DNA of 54,983 nt from IMG/VR virus record IMGVR_UViG_3300043466_000937, positions 1-54,983 of that record, one strand, 5' to 3'. Positions 21,457-43,053 of this stretch are shown in pieces. This DNA comes from a virus (taxonomy: Duplodnaviria; Caudoviricetes). Position 1 is the stretch's first letter. Each line of letters opens with the position of its first letter. The translations under genes were made by a program, and so were the position numbers. Under the pieces are notes generated by a model. It worked only from the letters and a program-made list of their open reading frames with translations. It searched no databases and had not been told where the DNA came from.

Positions 21457-22173
21457 ATGTCCAAGAAGCCTAAGAATAGAAATGCAAACAAAGAACAAGA
21501 AGCACAAAAGAAGGCAGCACATTTTGAACTTAGACACATAAAACCGCTCACACCAAATCAGGAGAAAGTCTTTACAGCTTATCAACAAGGATATCATCTG
21601 ATGCTTCACGGTTTTGCTGGAACAGGCAAAACATTCTGCGCTCTATACTTGGCATTAAATCAAATACTAAATTCACAATCAGTATACAATAAGATAGTCG
21701 TAATACGATCCGTAGTTCCCTCAAGAGATATGGGATTCTTACCAGGATCAATGAAAGAAAAGATACAAGTTTACGAAGAACCATACCGCGAAATCTGCGA
21801 CAGTCTGTTTGGTCGTGGCGATGGTTATGACATACTCAAGATGAAAGGCATTGTACATTTCACTACCACTTCTTATCTTCGCGGACTGACATTCAACAAT
21901 GGCATTGTCATACTAGACGAAAGTCAGAACTTGTCATTCCAAGAATGTGACACGGTTCTAACAAGAATGGGTGACGAAAGTAGATTGCTTGTATGTGGTG
22001 ATTTCAGACAGACAGACTTAAATAAGCCCCATGAGAAAGAGGGTGTTACTCAGTTGATGAGAATTACCAATCGTATAAATACTTTTCAGCATATTGAGTT
22101 TCAGAAGGAAGATATCGTTCGTTCTGGACTAGTTAAGTCATACATAATTCAGAAGGACGCAATGGGGCTATGA
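21457..22173 (+). CDS. phoH: PhoH-like ATPase
   Basis: GFAGTGKT, GFLPG, LRGLTF, LDESQN, TRMG, GDFRQTD, DIVRS. Confidence 0.93.
   Translation: MSKKPKNRNANKEQEAQKKAAHFELRHIKPLTPNQEKVFTAYQQGYHLMLHGFAGTGKTFCALYLALNQILNSQSVYNKIVVIRSVVPSRDMGFLPGSMKEKIQVYEEPYREICDSLFGRGDGYDILKMKGIVHFTTTSYLRGLTFNNGIVILDESQNLSFQECDTVLTRMGDESRLLVCGDFRQTDLNKPHEKEGVTQLMRITNRINTFQHIEFQKEDIVRSGLVKSYIIQKDAMGL
22074..22081 (+). promoter_or_regulatory. T4-type late promoter
   Basis: exact TATAAATA near the end of phoH, upstream of the MKxF cassette. Confidence 0.6.
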
Positions 22174-23027
22174 AAACATTTTTAGAGTTTATAACAGAAG
22201 GGAAATCTCTTCGTGAACGAGTTCAACCTGCAATTGAACATACGGACGAAGAAGGCAAAGTACAAATAAAACGTGGCAAGCGTGGTGAAGATCATGCTGA
22301 GATCCGCGAAAGACATATGAAAGAGCCAGGCAAGCCTTTGCCAGGTAGAGCAGGTTTTTATGATCCAGAAGAACAGAAATTTTATACACGCGAAGAAATG
22401 GGTAATATAGACAGCACAAGAATGCTCACACCAAAAGAACGAGATGATCGTGAAGAAAGACTTGAAAAGAAATATGCTGGTGGTCAGTCTTCTACTGATA
22501 ACATGACAGACTTCCAAAGAACCAAACAAATGCTGAGATATACAGAAAATCTTGAAGAAGGTAATCCTCTTTCTCGTATGAGAACTCTTGAAAAAGAAGG
22601 GCGACATTTCATTGCAATATCAACTGAAAGACCAGGTCTAACAAAGAAGCAAGTTGCAAAAAGAAATGAAGAACTTATGTCTATGGCAAGAGAAGCTGGC
22701 TTTGGTGTAAGAAAAACTGAAGGTAGATATGAAGGTAACAAAGAATCATCACACGTTATTCATGCGCGCGCGGCCGGCCGTGAAGCTGGTGCAGAGCTTG
22801 TAGCATTTGGTCGTAGAGCAGGAAAGCACTTTGATCAAGATTCTGTCTTGCATCACAACGGCAAAACCGCTAGACTAATAGGTACAAACACAACTGGTTT
22901 TCCAGGTATGGACAAATCAGAAAAAGTTGGTGGTGAACTCAAATATAATCCAGATGAAAAATTCCCATTCCAAACTGAATTGAGACCATCTAAGAAAAGA
23001 TCACCAGCACGTTTCACTACGGAGTAA
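22170..23027 (+). CDS. probable internal virion protein (C-terminal DUF3293-like domain)
   Basis: MKTFLEFITE capsid-targeting-like start; ISTER...RNEEL...GRY..ESS...FDQDSVL. Confidence 0.65.
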   Translation: MKTFLEFITEGKSLRERVQPAIEHTDEEGKVQIKRGKRGEDHAEIRERHMKEPGKPLPGRAGFYDPEEQKFYTREEMGNIDSTRMLTPKERDDREERLEKKYAGGQSSTDNMTDFQRTKQMLRYTENLEEGNPLSRMRTLEKEGRHFIAISTERPGLTKKQVAKRNEELMSMAREAGFGVRKTEGRYEGNKESSHVIHARAAGREAGAELVAFGRRAGKHFDQDSVLHHNGKTARLIGTNTTGFPGMDKSEKVGGELKYNPDEKFPFQTELRPSKKRSPARFTTE

Positions 23028-23190: not shown

Positions 23191-24000
23191 ATGAAGTCAT
23201 TTAAGAAGTTTGTCGCAGACAAGACTGAAAAAGAACCTGTATATCACAAGGTTTACATTGGTAAAGATTTTGAAGTAAATACTAACAAGAAGCCAACTTT
23301 TCACAAGGTCTTCATTGGTAAAGTTGGTAAGCTTGACGATCTTGATGAAGCATACGACTTTAGTAAAGTCTCAACAAAATCTGACCTTCTTACGTCAGCT
23401 GGTCGACTTGAGAGTTCACAGAGAAGCATCGCGCTAAGACAGCATTATGATTTCAGTGGTGATTACAATCATAGAAGAGCAATACGATATTATACAACAA
23501 GTGCATATCGTAGAATCAATGGTCCAATGTATAAAGGTGAAGAGATTACTGATCCTGATGCGGCAGACGTAGTGCCACATTTGAAGTCAGCTTTAACAAA
23601 ACACAAAGCACCAGAAGATATTCCTGTACACTCAGGTATCAAGTATGATCCTAGAAAGCTACCTGTTGATGATGATAATGTCATGCGCGTAACAAACCCT
23701 GCATTCACAAGCACATCTTTACATTCGCAAGTTGCAAAGAATTTTGTTGGCACAGATATTGATGAAAAAGAAAAGCATGTGATACACTTCACTGTACCCA
23801 AAGGATCACATGGTGCATATGTTGATCATCATTCAGACAATGAAGGTGAAAAAGAATTCGTATTGCACCCAAATGCGAAGCTTGAGATACATCCAACTCC
23901 TGAAGTTGAAGATTTTGATACATGGAACGGAATGGGAAAACTGTATCATTGGAGAGCAAGACTTGTACATGACGGCGTTCAAGAGGTTGGAGAGAAATGA
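23191..24000 (+). CDS. ADP-ribosyltransferase (Alt/VIP2-like), paralog 1
   Basis: Y..IN..., AFTSTSL, VPKGSHGAYV, EGEKEFVLHP. Confidence 0.82.
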   Translation: MKSFKKFVADKTEKEPVYHKVYIGKDFEVNTNKKPTFHKVFIGKVGKLDDLDEAYDFSKVSTKSDLLTSAGRLESSQRSIALRQHYDFSGDYNHRRAIRYYTTSAYRRINGPMYKGEEITDPDAADVVPHLKSALTKHKAPEDIPVHSGIKYDPRKLPVDDDNVMRVTNPAFTSTSLHSQVAKNFVGTDIDEKEKHVIHFTVPKGSHGAYVDHHSDNEGEKEFVLHPNAKLEIHPTPEVEDFDTWNGMGKLYHWRARLVHDGVQEVGEK

Positions 24001-24203: not shown

Positions 24204-24424
24204 TGTATCTTGATTATTGGATGATTGCGGCAGTCATATTGTCATTTGGTGCATGTCACTGGATTAGCAGAGTGCAAGGTATTCAAGAGGGTGCAGTAAC
24301 AACTCTTCGTCTTCTGCATGCAGAAAAGATAATCAATGTGTCTGATGAAGGCAAAGTAAGTCGCTACTCGACATGGAATCAAAAACCAAAAAGAAAAAGA
24401 AGAAACAAAAATGCTGACCTTTAA
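24203..24424 (+). CDS. small membrane protein
   Basis: N-terminal TM and basic tail. Confidence 0.6.
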   Translation: MYLDYWMIAAVILSFGACHWISRVQGIQEGAVTTLRLLHAEKIINVSDEGKVSRYSTWNQKPKRKRRNKNADL

Positions 24425-25268
24425 ATCATACTTGAACGAACAAAAAGAAAAGAAGAAAGAAGTGGAGACGAACTATCATAAAGTCTTTATCGGTAAGATC
24501 GGTAAATTTGACGAAGATGATGATGCAAAGTCTATCTATCATAAAGTCTTCATTGGTAAGATCAAGAAACTAGACGAAGCATTTAGACAGGGCGCAGCCA
24601 GACATGAAGGGCCGCGCTCTGATGAGACACAAAGTCTTCATGAAAAGTTATCGAGACGATATAAGTTTGGTAGAAAGCTAAAAGAATCAAAACGATTTGA
24701 ACCCGATCTTGATGATCCAGAAGGCAGCAAAAAAAATGCAATCAGAAAATATTCTGGTATAATGTATAAGAAAATAAACAAGGCATTATACACAGGGGAC
24801 TCAAGTGATCTGACTACTCAACATCATGATATAATCGAAAATTTGAAATCAGCTTTAGTTAAGCATAAGACAGGTGAAGACATGACTGTCAGTTCTGGTC
24901 TCAAAGTTTCTCCTGATTCCTTCAGAAAAGAAGGTGATGAAGGTCCAATAAAAATGATAATGCCAGCTTTCACAAGTACATCGTTAAGGCCGGCGATTGC
25001 AAGAGAGTTTGCTAAACCTATTCGGAAAGAAGGTGAGCCCGAAGAACACGTAGTTCATATAGATGTTCCTAAAGGTTCTCATGGTGCATATGTAGCACAT
25101 CACAGTGCAATACCTGAAGAACACGAATTCATTTTACATCCAGGTGCAAGACTACATGTCGATCCTCTTCCATCACATATCAGCGAACGCACAGATTGGG
25201 ATGGTAATAGAATTAAAACTCACCATTGGAATGCTCGTTTAGTTCATGATGGTGTAAAAGACGTTTGA
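24411..25268 (+). CDS. ADP-ribosyltransferase (Alt/VIP2-like), paralog 2
   Basis: YKKINKALY, AFTSTSL, VPKGSHGAYV, EEHEFILHP. Confidence 0.82.
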   Translation: MLTFKSYLNEQKEKKKEVETNYHKVFIGKIGKFDEDDDAKSIYHKVFIGKIKKLDEAFRQGAARHEGPRSDETQSLHEKLSRRYKFGRKLKESKRFEPDLDDPEGSKKNAIRKYSGIMYKKINKALYTGDSSDLTTQHHDIIENLKSALVKHKTGEDMTVSSGLKVSPDSFRKEGDEGPIKMIMPAFTSTSLRPAIAREFAKPIRKEGEPEEHVVHIDVPKGSHGAYVAHHSAIPEEHEFILHPGARLHVDPLPSHISERTDWDGNRIKTHHWNARLVHDGVKDV

Positions 25269-25973: not shown

Positions 25974-26126
25974 ATGAGACTATATAAAGTAAAAGAGTTT
26001 GTCATTGAAGAAACGGGAGTAAAGGTTACCATTCTTGGTGATGTTGAAACCAGAGGCGCAGCATACGCTGAGGCTCATCTGAAATGGCCAAAGATATTAT
26101 CGTTGAAGGAATACGAAAAACACTGA
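25974..26126 (+). CDS. hypothetical 50-aa ORF overlapping the tmRNA acceptor piece (not in ORF track)
   Basis: MRLYKVKEFVIEETG...LKEYEKH; stop TGA lies in helix P2a. Confidence 0.4.
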   Translation: MRLYKVKEFVIEETGVKVTILGDVETRGAAYAEAHLKWPKILSLKEYEKH

Positions 26127-26158
26127 GGACGGGGGTGCAAATCCCCCCTGCTCCACCA
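26096..26158 (+). ncRNA. ssrA: permuted tmRNA, acceptor piece (5' boundary uncertain, may extend upstream)
   Basis: GAC + T-arm GGGGG-TGCAAAT-CCCCC + acceptor 3' strand CTGCTCC + A-CCA; ACACTGAG and ATTATC pair with the coding piece. Confidence 0.92.
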
Positions 26159-26483
26159 TAAAGACTGAGATGCCGTTTAAAAGACAGGAAGATAGAAACA
26201 GATATAACGCGAAAAAAGTACAGGAAAGAAGAGAGTTTCTTGATAACTACAAACTCCAAAAAGGATGTGAGATTTGTGGATACGACAAACACCCAAAAGC
26301 ACTGTGCTTTGATCATATTGATCCTATGACAAAACATAAAGATTACTCATCTAAGAATATGACGAGATGGAGTATTGATATGTTGACAGAGGAAATAGCG
26401 AAGTGCCGCGTTTTATGTGCTAACTGTCATAATATAGAGACGTTTGAAAAAGAACATCATCGGTTAAACAAGCAGTCTTTATG
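26157..26483 (+). repeat. 11-bp inverted repeat closing the tmRNA intervening segment
   Basis: CATAAAGACTG (26157-26167) / CAGTCTTTATG (26473-26483). Confidence 0.9.
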
Positions 26484-26484
26484 A
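26170..26484 (+). CDS. HNH endonuclease inside the tmRNA intervening segment
   Basis: CEICG...FDHIDP...KCRVLCANCH zinc-binding HNH pattern. Confidence 0.88.
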   Translation: MPFKRQEDRNRYNAKKVQERREFLDNYKLQKGCEICGYDKHPKALCFDHIDPMTKHKDYSSKNMTRWSIDMLTEEIAKCRVLCANCHNIETFEKEHHRLNKQSL

Positions 26485-26485
26485 C

Positions 26486-26653
26486 GGGGCAGAATTTAGG
26501 ATCGACTGAGTGTAGAATAGTTGACTGGAGATAATCGTAGGCGACTACGTACAAGCGCAAAACTCTAAATGCAAACGATAACTTTGCACCTCGTATGGCA
26601 CTAGCTGCCTAACATGCGCTCGGAGGGGGCGTGGAAACAGAACCCCTCCACCA
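26486..26653 (+). ncRNA. ssrA: permuted tmRNA, coding piece (tag ANDNFAPRMALAA at 26571-26612)
   Basis: 5' GGGGCAG-AATTTAGGATCGAC; G3.U70 pair with the acceptor piece; pk1 CGTAG/CTACG + GCG/CGC; resume codon GCA; terminal hairpin with TGGAAACAGAA loop. Confidence 0.92.
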
Positions 26654-26667
26654 ATACTTTGCGCTAG

Positions 26668-26745
26668 TGCCAGTTTTAGGCGCATCGTACAATGAACTGG
26701 CAAAACGGAACGCCGTGTCTCCGTTGCAACAAACCTAAACACGGC
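26668..26745 (+). ncRNA. candidate structured RNA (double pseudoknot) in the leader of the 84-aa gene
   Basis: four perfect helices found by hand: TGCCAGTT/AACTGGCA, AACGGA/TCCGTT, GCCGTGT/ACACGGC, TTAGG/CCTAA. Confidence 0.55.
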
Positions 26746-26776
26746 ACCTTAACACACATGACACAGGAGAAATATC

Positions 26777-27064: not shown

Positions 27065-27523
27065 ATGCAATTATTCAAGCCATTCTATATCTGGTGGGTC
27101 ACAAATCTAGCAGTCGCGTCTGGTGTTTTCTGGGCATGGCACACTGGCATCATTACCAAAATCTGGTATGATGATGTGACATTGATTACATCTGCCCTCG
27201 CTGTTCTCTATGTTATCACAACAGGACTTATTGGCTACGTTGCGTATACCAAAGACTATACAAGCAAGATTGTAGATGCTTGCTGGTTTCTATCTGAGCA
27301 AATGCTTGCACTTGGTATGTTAGGTACTGTTGTCGGCTTCATCTATCTTCTATCTTCAGGTATTTCATCCGCATCTGTTAGTGATCCAACAAGTCTAGCA
27401 ACTCTGCTGGCTAATATGTCTGTTGGTCTCGGCATCGCACTGTACACGAATGCAGTTGGTATCTTAGCAAGTCTAATATCAAAGACATTGCTATATGCGG
27501 TAACATACGATCATGAAGAATAA
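27065..27523 (+). CDS. MotA/TolQ/ExbB proton-channel family protein
   Basis: four hydrophobic segments; LGMLGTVVG and GLGIALYT..VG motifs. Confidence 0.82.
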   Translation: MQLFKPFYIWWVTNLAVASGVFWAWHTGIITKIWYDDVTLITSALAVLYVITTGLIGYVAYTKDYTSKIVDACWFLSEQMLALGMLGTVVGFIYLLSSGISSASVSDPTSLATLLANMSVGLGIALYTNAVGILASLISKTLLYAVTYDHEE

Positions 27524-28154
27524 AAAGTTTGACTTCCGAACAGCATACATTGATCTGCTAATCAATCTGCTGACTGGCACGGTTGTTCTATTCATTCTCA
27601 CAACTCTTCTCATTGCACCTGTCACGCAACAAAACGAAGGTATCAAGAAGAATGCAGATTATGTTATCACGCTAGAATGGCCAAACGAACTGGACTGTGA
27701 CGTTGACTTGTGGGTGCGTGATCCTCAAAACAATATCGTATCATATCGCTTTCTTGAAGCAGGCTTGATGTACTTTGAGCGTGATGATATGGGCAAGCGC
27801 CGTAGTATCTACGAGATAGATGGCAAAGAAGTTGTCATTGATCCAGACAACAAAGAGTTCGTAACTCTGCGCGGTACATTTCCCGGAGAGTATATTGTCA
27901 ATCTTCATGTCTACTCATGCTTAGACAGCGAAAAGAATTTAGGACTGCCAGCAGGAACTCTCATGGAAGTACCTGTGAAGATTGAGATTGTCAGAATCAA
28001 TCCAACGTACATTGTTGTTAAGCACATTGAAATGAAAATGGAAAGTGTATGGCAAGAGAAGACAGCTATTCGCTTTGTGATGGACAACAAGAAGAACATT
28101 CTTCGGTTCAAGAATGATTATGTTTCCGTTAGAACAGGAAAGACAGCACCATGA
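27513..28154 (+). CDS. single-pass ExbD/TolR/MotB-like partner with YfaP-like periplasmic domain
   Basis: AYIDLLINLL TM segment with Asp; LEW...DVDLWVRDP...RDD.G...E...PGEY.VNLHVY. Confidence 0.65.
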   Translation: MKNKKFDFRTAYIDLLINLLTGTVVLFILTTLLIAPVTQQNEGIKKNADYVITLEWPNELDCDVDLWVRDPQNNIVSYRFLEAGLMYFERDDMGKRRSIYEIDGKEVVIDPDNKEFVTLRGTFPGEYIVNLHVYSCLDSEKNLGLPAGTLMEVPVKIEIVRINPTYIVVKHIEMKMESVWQEKTAIRFVMDNKKNILRFKNDYVSVRTGKTAP

Positions 28155-28735
28155 CACAAACAATTCTCTTGTTCATCGCGCTATTTGTTGCTATAATACT
28201 AGCTGCATCATTCTACTGGAACAGCAAGATACTGAAGTTCATCACGATTGCATTCTTTGTGCTTCTAGCAAATGCTATTTACTTCTCACTTGATGGCGTC
28301 AAGGGATGGCCGTCAGAAGATACAAGAGTTGTCAAAGGACTTCTTGCATCTGTTGTGATTGTCAATCCATCTAACACGGACGATGGAGCAATCTATATCA
28401 GCATATTCCCTACCACACCAAAAAAGTGGTATGAGTATGACTATCCAAGATATGCACCAAAGACTTTCTATGTGAAGTATTCCAATGATCGTGCTGCACA
28501 GTTTGAAGAAGCAAAGCAGGCCATGGAAGAGGGCAAGGAAGTCCGTATCAATGGTATACCACCTGAGAATGCTGCGCCTGGTGAAGGCGAAGGAACAGGT
28601 GATGACAGTATCTCTGGTATGATTAACCAGATTATAGATAGAGTCATGTCTCCACAAAGAGACACATATAAACCAAAAGTGCCTGATGTTGAAATCATAA
28701 CACCTGAGGTTCCACCACAGAAAGGAACAAAGTAA
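28151..28735 (+). CDS. membrane protein with two TMs and Pro-rich tail
   Basis: two N-terminal TMs, KGWPS, C-terminal PKVPDVEIITPEVPP. Confidence 0.7.
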   Translation: MTQTILLFIALFVAIILAASFYWNSKILKFITIAFFVLLANAIYFSLDGVKGWPSEDTRVVKGLLASVVIVNPSNTDDGAIYISIFPTTPKKWYEYDYPRYAPKTFYVKYSNDRAAQFEEAKQAMEEGKEVRINGIPPENAAPGEGEGTGDDSISGMINQIIDRVMSPQRDTYKPKVPDVEIITPEVPPQKGTK

Positions 28736-29718
28736 TGAAAAAGTTTTTAGCAGTCAGTCTTTTAGCATTAGCACTAGTAGGCTGCAATGAAATGTCAGCG
28801 AAAGAGATATACAACATAAGCGTTGATGGTGTTGTTCTCATTCAGAACAGAATAGATGCATCTAATGGTGGATCAGGCACTGGCTTTATTCTTGAAGACA
28901 ATCAGATTGTTACAAACCACCATGTCATCGGCGGTCAGGGCAAAATTTTTGTGTTCTCTAGCAAGTCTGGTAAAGAGTATGAAGCTCAAGTAGTCTACGC
29001 GGATCCTGTTGCAGATATAGCAGTCATTCAATTGAAAGATTGGGAACTCTATGAGAAGAATGAGAACCCTGTTAATCTCATTCTTGGTAATAGTAATTAT
29101 ATGAAGCCTGGTGATAAGATTGTGGTCATCGGTCATCCTTGGGGATTAACATGGACTGTATCTGAAGGTATTATCTCAGGTAAGCATCGCCGTGTCGGAC
29201 AAAATCCAAAGTTTGTAGATCAAATTGACGCCAATCTATTTCAAGGCAATTCAGGCGGCCCAATCTTCAATGAGAACGGGCAGATCATCTGTGTGAGTAA
29301 TATGATGCTTGCAATGGAAGGTGGATCATATGGCTTCTGTGTTCCTTCCAATCTTGTGAAGAAGGTCGTTTATGACTTTAACACTCTAGGTGAAGTGCGC
29401 TGGAGAGTATTGAACATATCAGCAGATTTGACAGACGATAAACAGTCTGTTATAATTCGTGAATTGGAACTTGATGGTGCTGCTGCAAAGGCAGGATTAA
29501 ATCAGAACGATATTATCATGGGCATTTCAACAACAAAAAATGCCGCGACCATCAAGAAGGTATCAAATCCAAATGATCTGATTACTGAGCTTGCAATGCT
29601 ATTTGGTGATAATGAAGAGATTATTTTATTGATTGATAGAAAAGGTGAAAAGATGATGATCAATGTGAAAACAAACTACAGAAAGTCTAGCGAGTACTCA
29701 CCAGATCAGGCAAAGTGA
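28735..29718 (+). CDS. HtrA/DegP-like trypsin serine protease lipoprotein with PDZ domain
   Basis: lipobox LVGC; triad VTNHHV / DIAVI / GNSGGP; AAKAGL..NDII PDZ motif. Confidence 0.9.
   Translation: MKKFLAVSLLALALVGCNEMSAKEIYNISVDGVVLIQNRIDASNGGSGTGFILEDNQIVTNHHVIGGQGKIFVFSSKSGKEYEAQVVYADPVADIAVIQLKDWELYEKNENPVNLILGNSNYMKPGDKIVVIGHPWGLTWTVSEGIISGKHRRVGQNPKFVDQIDANLFQGNSGGPIFNENGQIICVSNMMLAMEGGSYGFCVPSNLVKKVVYDFNTLGEVRWRVLNISADLTDDKQSVIIRELELDGAAAKAGLNQNDIIMGISTTKNAATIKKVSNPNDLITELAMLFGDNEEIILLIDRKGEKMMINVKTNYRKSSEYSPDQAK
29428..29456 (+). promoter_or_regulatory. consensus sigma70 promoter inside the protease gene
   Basis: TTGACA-N17-TATAAT, perfect match. Confidence 0.7.
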
Positions 29719-41848: not shown

Positions 41849-42637
41849 ATGGTAAAAGATAGTGGACAGACAGAACCAAGAGATAAGTCAGCATCGAAAT
41901 TCGATCAGTTCAAGACGCCTCATGATATACCTGAAGCGTTTCAGAAGATGGAGAACGTGACAGCACTTCATCATGGTAGATCAGGCAATCTTATTGCTGC
42001 TGGTGATAATAAAGACGGTGAATTCTTGATGTTTCAGCACGTATCAGGATCAGCAATCTATATGATGCCTGATGGTGCTGTTCAGTTTGTCTCACACAAT
42101 GGACAGAACAGCTTGATCTTTGGTGAGAACCGAATGATGGTAACAGGCGCATATGATATCGTTGTTCATGGCGGCGGCAGTCTCAAGGTTGATGGTGATT
42201 ACAATACGACTATTCTAGGTGATTGCATTCAGACCATACAGGGTGATATGATCACATCATGTAAGAATAGATTTGAAACTGTAAATGGTATGAACAGTCA
42301 GATAGCTCAAAATCATGCTATGATGGCATCTGAAAGCTTTACGATGGCAGCTAAGGGTCATGCAAGTATTACCGGTAAAGCTGGTATTGGTATGTCTTCA
42401 GCAGAAGGCGGTATCAAGATTGAAGCAAAGGGTGAACTCAGTGTGGAATCTGTAGGTGGTGCATTGAACTTTGTATCAAAAGGTATGTTTAATATGTTTT
42501 CTGGTTCTGATATCAATATGGATGGATCACCAAATATCTACTTTAATTCTAATAAAGCAACCGCACAAGATGCACAAAAAGGAACTTTTGCTTCTGCTCA
42601 GAAGGCTACACCAGAACCTAACTACAGTAGAGCATAA
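41849..42637 (+). CDS. gp5 C-terminal beta-helix spike-like protein
   Basis: SG.....D....E.....H.SGS......DG, followed by VxG repeats (VTGA, VHGG, VDGD, ILGD, IQGD). Confidence 0.75.
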   Translation: MVKDSGQTEPRDKSASKFDQFKTPHDIPEAFQKMENVTALHHGRSGNLIAAGDNKDGEFLMFQHVSGSAIYMMPDGAVQFVSHNGQNSLIFGENRMMVTGAYDIVVHGGGSLKVDGDYNTTILGDCIQTIQGDMITSCKNRFETVNGMNSQIAQNHAMMASESFTMAAKGHASITGKAGIGMSSAEGGIKIEAKGELSVESVGGALNFVSKGMFNMFSGSDINMDGSPNIYFNSNKATAQDAQKGTFASAQKATPEPNYSRA

Positions 42638-42640
42638 ATA
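42633..42640 (+). promoter_or_regulatory. T4-type late promoter variant
   Basis: CATAAATA before gp25. Confidence 0.5.
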
Positions 42641-42645
42641 ATAAC

Positions 42646-43053
42646 ATGCTAAAACAACAAAAATCTAGACAAAACGATTACTCAGACTTAGACCTCGACT
42701 TCTTAATGAATCCGACAACGAAAGATGTTGTTATTAAGAGAGGTGAAGATGCTATCAAGAGGTCTATTCGAAATTTGATCTTGACGAACTTCTATGATCG
42801 CCCATTCAGACCATCTATTGGTTCGAATGTTCAAAAACTCTTGTTCGATGAGATAGCAGATCCTCTTGTAAAAAATCTTTTGGAAACTGCAATAAACGAG
42901 ACAATCTACAAATTTGAACCAAGAGTAAATCTTCAATTTGTTGAAGTAATACCTGATCTTGATGCAAACGGACTGACAGTAAGACTTCAATATACAATAT
43001 TGAATAGAGAAGAACCTGTAATAACATCACTATTCCTAGAGAGAATTCGATAA
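42646..43053 (+). CDS. gp25: baseplate wedge subunit gp25
   Basis: YSDLDLDF, AIKRSIRNLILTN..DRPF, FEPRV. Confidence 0.93.
   Translation: MLKQQKSRQNDYSDLDLDFLMNPTTKDVVIKRGEDAIKRSIRNLILTNFYDRPFRPSIGSNVQKLLFDEIADPLVKNLLETAINETIYKFEPRVNLQFVEVIPDLDANGLTVRLQYTILNREEPVITSLFLERIR

Follow-up and report, generated by a model that had tools for sequence, protein, structure and literature searches.

Anatomy of the tmRNA locus

The window, i.e. the whole stretch of 54,983 nt of viral DNA analysed here, is a fragment of a T4-like phage genome with genes for primase, gp32, gp59 and baseplate proteins. Its DNA is found mainly in lake and freshwater metagenome runs; the closest gp32 from cultured phages is 50% identical and comes from cyanophages. 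The Rfam model RF04321 (permuted tmRNA) matches positions 26096-26612 with 85.3 bits (cut-off 47, E = 5.5e-15); ARAGORN, run on the window, called no tmRNA. The pieces follow the order of a permuted tmRNA: T-arm and acceptor strand with CCA, spacer, then acceptor 5′ strand with D-loop and tag. The acceptor stem is paired (pair probabilities 0.98-1.0), the G3-U70 alanine pair and A73 are present, and the tag, alphaproteobacterial in type, is encoded in a frame ending in AA, as for permuted tmRNA. The features of the locus, all on the + strand, are as follows.

25974..26126, +, 50-aa upstream ORF, its last codons overlapping the 5′ end of the acceptor piece
26096..26158, +, tmRNA acceptor piece (RF04321 alignment and fold): helix-2 strand, T-arm, acceptor 3′ strand, A, CCA
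26131..26147, +, T-arm with variant loop TGCAAAT, candidate immunity change 1
26131..26496, +, putative exchanged cassette (comparison with sister alleles and with allele L421): T-arm, both acceptor strands, spacer, D-loop
26148-26154, +, acceptor 3′ strand, followed by discriminator A26155 and CCA 26156-26158
26157..26167, +, 5′ arm of the closing stem, ancestral by sequence comparison, beginning within CCA
26159..26485, +, intervening segment (spacer), 327 nt, predicted to be removed during maturation
26170..26484, +, HNH nuclease gene, 104 aa, predicted homodimer
26473..26483, +, 3′ arm of the closing stem, encoding the last residues QSL and supplying the TGA stop
26486..26612, +, tmRNA coding piece (RF04321): acceptor 5′ strand, D-loop, helix 2, tag frame
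26486-26492, +, mature 5′ end GGGGCAG
26493..26505, +, D-loop variant AATTTAGG, one base longer than the common AA[ACT]TAGG, candidate immunity change 2
26571-26612, +, tag frame ANDNFAPRMALAA with stop
26622..26649, +, predicted 3′ hairpin downstream of the tag frame

A first-pass annotation, made from the sequence alone, had placed an HNH ORF in the spacer between CCA and position 26486. The ORF is there and fills 315 of the 327 nt; its TGA ends 1 nt before G26486, as had been noted. Identical copies of the gene on three other IMG/VR contigs rule out an artefact of a single contig assembly. A tmRNA pseudogene is ruled out by the intact stems and by a compensatory acceptor pair seen in comparison with allele L421. 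We infer from the introduction of PMC11915505 that host maturation would remove the spacer.

The 50-aa upstream ORF is conserved in sister phages and has no Pfam or PHROG match. An SmpB gene, looked for in five records (one of them complete), was not found. Elsewhere in the window lie two paralogous genes of Alt-like ADP-ribosyltransferases with N-terminal HKVFIGK repeats (23191-24000 and 24411-25268) and a gene (22170-23027) for a protein whose C-terminal half contains an S-adenosylmethionine lyase domain (Pfam PF23780, E = 1e-8), possibly an anti-restriction gene. A block of four genes at 27065-29718 encodes a MotA/ExbB-like protein (weak match), two membrane-anchored proteins of no assigned family and a DegP-like protease; similar DNA is found downstream in L006, L023 and L025. 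A second, unrelated and free-standing HNH gene (1290-1844) adjoins the primase gene.

The HNH protein and its homologues

The HNH assignment of the first-pass annotation is supported by a match to PHROG phrog_2255 (E = 2e-25) and by a Pfam HNH score of 21.1 bits, just below the cut-off of 21.4. The motif residues are C33-C36, D48-H49 and C83-C86-H87; among 61 homologues, C33, C36, H49, C83 and C86 are invariant (61/61), and D48 and H87 are kept in 56 and 60, respectively. We take these residues to be the Zn ligands and the D-H...H active site, by analogy with endonuclease VII. The same CxxC...DH...CxxCH pattern occurs in small Zn-binding HNH nucleases (Gme HNH, 4h9d; phage GVE2 HNH, 5h0m; T4 endonuclease VII; the HNH domain of Cap5).

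A structure model built with the 61-sequence alignment reached pLDDT 87.6 (an earlier model, 65) and has a long basic N-terminal helix, two strands and a C-terminal helix; the 104-aa protein has no separate DNA-binding domain. HNH nucleases fill most of the top ranks of the Foldseek search (best E 0.034, none at E ≤ 0.001); VIA gave Z 3.6 to 4h9d (rmsd 3.9, 62 residues aligned), and a wide fold search gave Z of at most 3.7. A sequence search of the PDB found no solved structure for the family. Folded in two copies, the protein scored 0.46, against 0.01 for the best of three controls, with 100% contact agreement and pLDDT of at least 84; at the score mark the test picks up 20 of 30 solved dimers and one of 23 monomers, rates that are only rough for this alignment. 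The predicted interface (residues 38-44 and 83-92) contains the invariant A44 and the near-invariant N85; tandem copies of the HNH domain are found in 83 of 149 relatives. The protein is thus predicted to act as a homodimer, which would suit a roughly symmetric site, such as the inverted repeat of the T-arm or the GATC/TCGA palindromes after the D-loop.

Twelve close homologues (55-90% identity) have full-length frames and keep the Cys/His residues. Most of their C-termini (QSL, QFL, KPL or QPL) resemble stem-coded ends. Translation of the 5′ end of an L013-type tmRNA gives exactly the tail of homologue P0024 (0/1000 shuffles); the corresponding count was 14/1000 for homologue P0006 and 332-952 for four distant controls. 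Both P0024 and P0006 have frameshifted or read-through ends. The protein tails of the close homologues are what suggests their placement in tmRNA spacers. The wider HNH family is large (29,323 clusters). None of 81 distant HNH loci (41-55% identity at best) lies in a tmRNA; a metagenome scan with alignment A1 (19 of 64 parts) gave relatives of at most 55% identity, none in a tmRNA, and a scan with P0005 gave distant loci only. The 104-aa family is represented by one readable DNA allele, with its identical copies.

The closing stem of the spacer

Scans for viral permuted tmRNA genes gave 192 entries; 129 could be parsed and yielded 86 different alleles, four of them HNH carriers and 82 free of such a gene, 63 stayed unparsed as incomplete or presumed chance matches, and L182-L269 were excluded as protein-scan loci.

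In the window the ends of the spacer form a perfect 11-bp helix (26157-26167/26473-26483) across a 2x2 loop, as the first-pass annotation described. The helix appears in both the MFE and the centroid folds (z = -5.2, 0/100 shuffles, pair probabilities 0.98-1.0), and one of its strands is indeed made by the last HNH codons. The C and A of CCA itself take part in the first two pairs; after 3′ maturation 9 bp would be left.

At least nine of the 11 closing pairs form in all 82 nuclease-free phage alleles, and a perfect run of at least 11 bp in 44 of them. Across the phage alleles 94.8% of the closing-stem cells pair, against 31-67% with one arm slid by 1-3 nt. The covariation that the annotation proposed to look for is real, with compensatory pair types at several positions among phage alleles. 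The stem is present as well in 75 of 113 parsed bacterial genes (from 120 loci). A reading of the stem as an adaptation supplied by the mobile element is rejected; its presence in nuclease-free phage genes and in bacterial genes means that the element neither built nor brought it. The closing stem is, by this comparison of sequences, an ancestral feature. The spacer ends in TGA in 19 of 20 phage alleles not selected on the TGA motif: the UG of the stem pairs with the CA of CCA, and the TGA at the spacer end is thus a built-in stop codon.

Insert-free alleles and an exchanged frame

Alleles without the insert, the existence of which the annotation had left to be checked, are present in the same lineage (e.g. 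L007 and L017). Among 21 contigs with the tag-region motif, four have the HNH insert, one has a second HNH gene, 15 have a short spacer and one is truncated; the complete 167-kb genome of a sister phage has no homologue of the nuclease. Compared with L017, the window allele has no differences in 26035-26130, eight in 26131-26150, four in 26490-26496 and none in 26497-26535; compared with L007, it has none in 26060-26130 and none in 26497-26594. The 12 differences from insert-free sisters therefore fall within 31 nt beside the spacer, and flanks of 39-98 nt are identical. One RNA run, in assembled contigs that may contain DNA, yielded a 167-nt contig identical to 26175-26341 and also the insert-free junction with 251 bases identical to 26497-26747. 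Runs X16, X18 and X20 yielded related tmRNA pieces only.

The exchanged sequence includes a 68-nt frame that consists of the T-arm, the acceptor strands, the stem arms and the D-loop. This frame is 97%/94% identical to that of a distant phage, L421, with a tmRNA backbone of 50-53% identity (best of 116 allele entries); its identity to the same-lineage allele L010 is 75%/84%. It departs from the L421 frame in one acceptor pair, a compensatory change, and in the final base of the spacer. The spacer of L421 carries an HNH gene of a different family. Since the frame is shared despite distant backbones and different nucleases, it appears to have moved between distant phages, with its nuclease exchanged.

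The sharply bounded block and the frame in common with L421 are signs of mobility that fit the homing proposed in the annotation. We favour, with moderate confidence, the reading that the HNH protein is a free-standing homing endonuclease, cutting the nuclease-free tmRNA genes of co-infecting phages and copied into them by repair.

Other cargo in the same slot

The spacer of two-piece tmRNA genes had been described as normally short. This holds poorly in related phages, where it is hypervariable and extends 25-520 nt after CCA. Among 113 bacterial genes the median spacer is 34 nt and the longest 112 nt, in contrast to the 327 nt, with a nuclease gene, of the window. According to the first-pass annotation, the spacer of the two-piece tmRNA in Rickettsia tolerates insertions of palindromic elements.

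Other ORFs of at least 37 aa are found in the spacers of 15 of the 82 nuclease-free phage alleles; 10 of these stop at the TGA of the stem, and many are preceded by a strong SD located within its 5′ arm or close to it. Five pairs of cargo genes gave pN/pS of 0.14-0.49, and a PHROG search with four cargo proteins found no match. The T-arm and acceptor stems are hypervariable across all phage alleles. These observations fit an alternative in which the nuclease is a passenger in a moron slot: a cassette driven by recombination, whose nuclease has another target or serves some accessory function, and with loop variants that are neutral or structural. That the slot exchanges non-nuclease cargo counts against homing, as recombination alone can move cassettes. 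We consider the passenger reading unlikely, though the strongest of the alternatives; a frame nearly identical across distant lineages is found only in two nuclease carriers, which it does not explain readily.

Several of the small cargo proteins, preceded by an AGGAG-type SD, form families (L068/L150/L130/L157/L098; L093/L146; L089/L113; L154/L106; L096/L101/L105). The spacers of L077 and L140 look tRNA-like by eye, and ARAGORN and Rfam call no tRNA inside them. Short structured motifs are common to spacers on differing tmRNA backbones (L025 and L060; L007 and L037), which suggests that non-coding spacers are exchanged between backbones and may be small RNAs. The cultured jumbo phage Phosso of Sinorhizobium (PV764938.1; L461:1234-1642) has an unannotated permuted tmRNA with a spacer of ∼410 nt and no ORF in it longer than 57 aa. 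This spacer matches no Rfam family itself and is possibly structured RNA cargo.

A second HNH family

A second HNH family, phrog_655, occupies five spacers on divergent backbones (L010, L173, L421 and L422 by profile scan; L171 by 72% identity); the incomplete L446 was added by eye for its C-terminal similarity to L421. All five alleles have a TAAATA motif in a hairpin covering the RBS, found in one of the 82 non-carriers. The same late-promoter/RBS hairpin control is described for I-TevI, segB and mobE of T4 in the accessible part of PMC2988022. The pN/pS values of the second family are 0.25-0.62. Three more distant relatives are free-standing, and a tree of eight second-family and free-standing proteins accommodates one invasion of the slot as well as several. 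The finding of two unrelated HNH families in one slot, one of them with homing-type regulation in five of five alleles, argues against a mere passenger.

The HNH frame of L171-L172 has no stop in the spacer and continues through the mature 5′ end of the coding piece; the closing stem there begins with a compensatory U-A pair.

Candidate target sites and possible immunity

The common D-loop, AA[ACT]TAGG, occurs in 76 of 82 non-carriers and in none of the four carriers, in a set where one viral-scan pattern favoured this loop and the alleles, being related by descent, are not independent. Restricted to alleles chosen without regard to the D-loop region, the counts are 13 of 16 against 0 of 4 (p = 0.007). 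A prospective scan for D-loops with the additional base gave 61 loci, with 34 parsed alleles plus L446; five loci stayed unparsed, four of them without a tag match. With two known carriers set aside, a nuclease was found in three of 33 such alleles, against none of 76 common-loop alleles (p = 0.026). The lack of the common D-loop in the four carriers speaks against a passenger cassette; the lack of a nuclease in 30 of the 33 variant-loop alleles, two of them already in the first allele set, speaks for one.

Of the 82 nuclease-free phage alleles 68 have the T-loop GGC[AG]GTA, as do 113 of 113 bacterial genes; the window allele has TGCAAAT. As a target common to both nuclease families this loop was rejected: three of five fully read second-family carriers keep GGCAGTA. 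Among the 86 phage alleles the base at the end of the T-loop and D-loop position 3 vary together (AATT accompanies T/C; AAAT or AACT accompanies A). This covariation holds in non-carriers and possibly reflects a tertiary contact in the tRNA-like domain. The D-loop variant may therefore be partly structural, as the passenger reading would have it. Within homing, the most likely target, judged from these alleles, is the common D-loop (AA[ACT]TAGG-TCGA) or the T-loop (GGGGC[AG]GTACC), both altered in the window allele.

Both candidate sites also occur in alphaproteobacterial genomes. A 20-mer spanning the common acceptor/D-loop junction is found in ∼3,900 bacterial genome stretches, mostly of Alphaproteobacteria among the matches listed, and neither site is found in the 55-kb window. 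Together with the common T-loop of all 113 parsed bacterial genes, this would suit a phage weapon: the nuclease would cut the ssrA gene of the host (or of rival phages), and the phage would supply a resistant tmRNA, a use in takeover or interference and not a purely selfish one. We hold this to be improbable, given that 82 of 86 related alleles, and the complete 167-kb sister, do without the nuclease, and that conservation of tmRNA explains the shared sequence simply.

Expression of the nuclease gene

It had been suggested that the stem limits translation of the nuclease by masking its SD. This was not borne out: the pairing of the 11-nt leader with the anti-SD amounts to -1.5 kcal/mol (median of 29 window genes, -5.6), and the closing helix leaves the AUG free, 3 nt away. 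With the SD nearly absent and the AUG exposed, SD masking explains little and is ruled out as the main control. Upstream of the gene at 26170 we found neither a late-promoter/RBS hairpin, which is common in T4 homing endonuclease genes but not universal, nor a sigma-70 promoter.

The first 8 nt of the 5′ arm of the stem, CATAAAGA (26157-26164), match the T4 late promoter at six of eight positions and are separated from the ATG by 5 nt; 8-mers of similar quality are frequent in the window (25 on one strand and 26 on the other). The arrangement NATAAATA-N5-ATG is found at the genes 42646 (42633-42648, +), which has a weak SD, and 37018 (37031-37016, -), both of them candidates for leaderless late transcripts. 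As the spacing of CATAAAGA to the ATG equals that of NATAAATA in these two genes, a leaderless late HNH transcript starting from the ATG is possible.

Poor signals of this kind could also mean that the gene is a silent or decaying relic, untranslated and persisting in a neutral spacer, like the S23 ORF of Coxiella. The -1.5 kcal/mol leader, the missing late hairpin and the frameshifted or read-through ends of P0024 and P0006 point that way, as does the report that the ORF of the Coxiella intervening sequence (IVS) is not made in vivo (accessible part of PMC4990558). Full-length frames with invariant Cys/His residues over 55-90% identity point the other way, and so does the possible leaderless start with the geometry of two other window genes; we regard a relic as very improbable.

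Relation to known systems

Permuted tmRNA genes (RF04321/RF01849; phage example Melnitz, PMC9004378) have the same piece order, alanine identity and closing stem, and a tag of the same alphaproteobacterial type; the accessible part of PMC9004378 counts 53 two-piece phage tmRNAs and does not mention spacer genes. In the accessible part of PMC11915505, spacers are said to contain a tRNA-Ala and a repetitive element, and group I introns are the only place named for nuclease genes. We found no published description of an HNH gene in a permuted tmRNA spacer in a search of mostly open-access literature; the accessible parts of PMC4131195, PMC4990558 and PMC11270868 do not describe the arrangement.

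The first-pass annotation spoke of an intron-like mobile element needing no splicing. An intact HNH gene in a presumably processing-neutral spacer stands; 'intron-like' is loose, as nothing joins the two pieces and the intron families of Rfam give no match. The CCA end and the mature 5′ end are free termini in a two-piece tmRNA, with no ligation of the flanks; the tmRNA is the only Rfam match in the window, and the HNH gene lies outside any intron or intein. An intron (group I, group II or bulge-helix-bulge) was rejected, as no Rfam intron family reaches its gathering score. Group I introns that interrupt standard tmRNA (PMC11915505) and the rRNA insertions of CPR bacteria (PMC11270868), as described in the accessible parts, also carry a nuclease gene rendered harmless by removal at the RNA level, as is predicted for the window spacer, and the tmRNA insertion likewise adjoins the tRNA-like domain. 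In contrast to them, the window spacer has neither ribozyme nor exon ligation, encodes an HNH and not a LAGLIDADG protein, and would be removed by ordinary maturation.

The intronless homing known from T4 (segB within its tRNA region, mobE; accessible part of PMC2988022) also concerns genes that are intron-free and patchy, with flanks co-exchanged, the last of these probable for the window gene too; its late-promoter/RBS hairpin recurs in the second family of the tmRNA slot. The T4 free-standing endonucleases described there lie between genes and have sites hundreds of bases off, whereas the window gene lies inside an RNA-gene precursor and its candidate site within ∼30 nt. The 104-aa family, known here from sequence, differs from them also in having no DNA-binding domain and no hairpin.

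The 23S IVS of Coxiella (accessible part of PMC4990558) is, like the window spacer, closed by a stem and ORF-bearing; it is excised without religation, as predicted for the spacer, leaving a fragmented but functional RNA. That IVS itself fragments the rRNA and encodes no nuclease; in the window, spacer and stem pre-exist and take up changing cargo. An RNase III-excised rRNA intervening sequence was rejected, as the segment sits in a tmRNA gene and not in an rRNA helix. By analogy, the arrangement would work as a union of the intronless homing of T4 with an intervening sequence of the rRNA kind.

Proposed mechanism and significance

In the homing reading, RNase P and 3′ trimming by the host would release the spacer as with any permuted tmRNA; with the spacer discarded by host enzymes, the insert would cost little and need no intron. 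The conserved UGA of the stem would give any spacer ORF a ready stop. The predicted homodimer would cut a short site in the tRNA-like domain of common-type alleles, and repair would copy the T-arm, both acceptor strands and the D-loop as one unit, so that the acceptor stem stays paired. The altered T- and D-loop sites would make the carrier allele immune. The least certain step is expression, which might proceed by weak initiation from the precursor or excised spacer, or from a leaderless late transcript.

A bolder proposal, which we put forward tentatively and think unlikely to hold in full, is that in aquatic T4-like phages the tmRNA spacer serves as a general gene-cassette port, recurrently captured by unrelated homing nucleases that carry immune frames and also cut host ssrA. 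Such a port would offer conserved flanks, a built-in stem and stop, and free excision by the tRNA-processing enzymes of the host. Recoded T-arm/D-loop frames would travel between distant phages, and nucleases would swap into the frames of others and drive the turnover of cargo. Where host ssrA is cut, ribosome rescue would pass to the phage copy.

If homing is confirmed, a homing nuclease would have a third way to live inside a conserved gene, relying on the routine maturation of a permuted RNA with no intron or intein; the short candidate target sites are named here. The 'disposable' spacer is a busy cassette of small genes missed by annotation, as the ARAGORN result and the unannotated tmRNA of Phosso illustrate. 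The finding bears on the reasons why phages keep tmRNA genes and on the variability of their tRNA-like domains.
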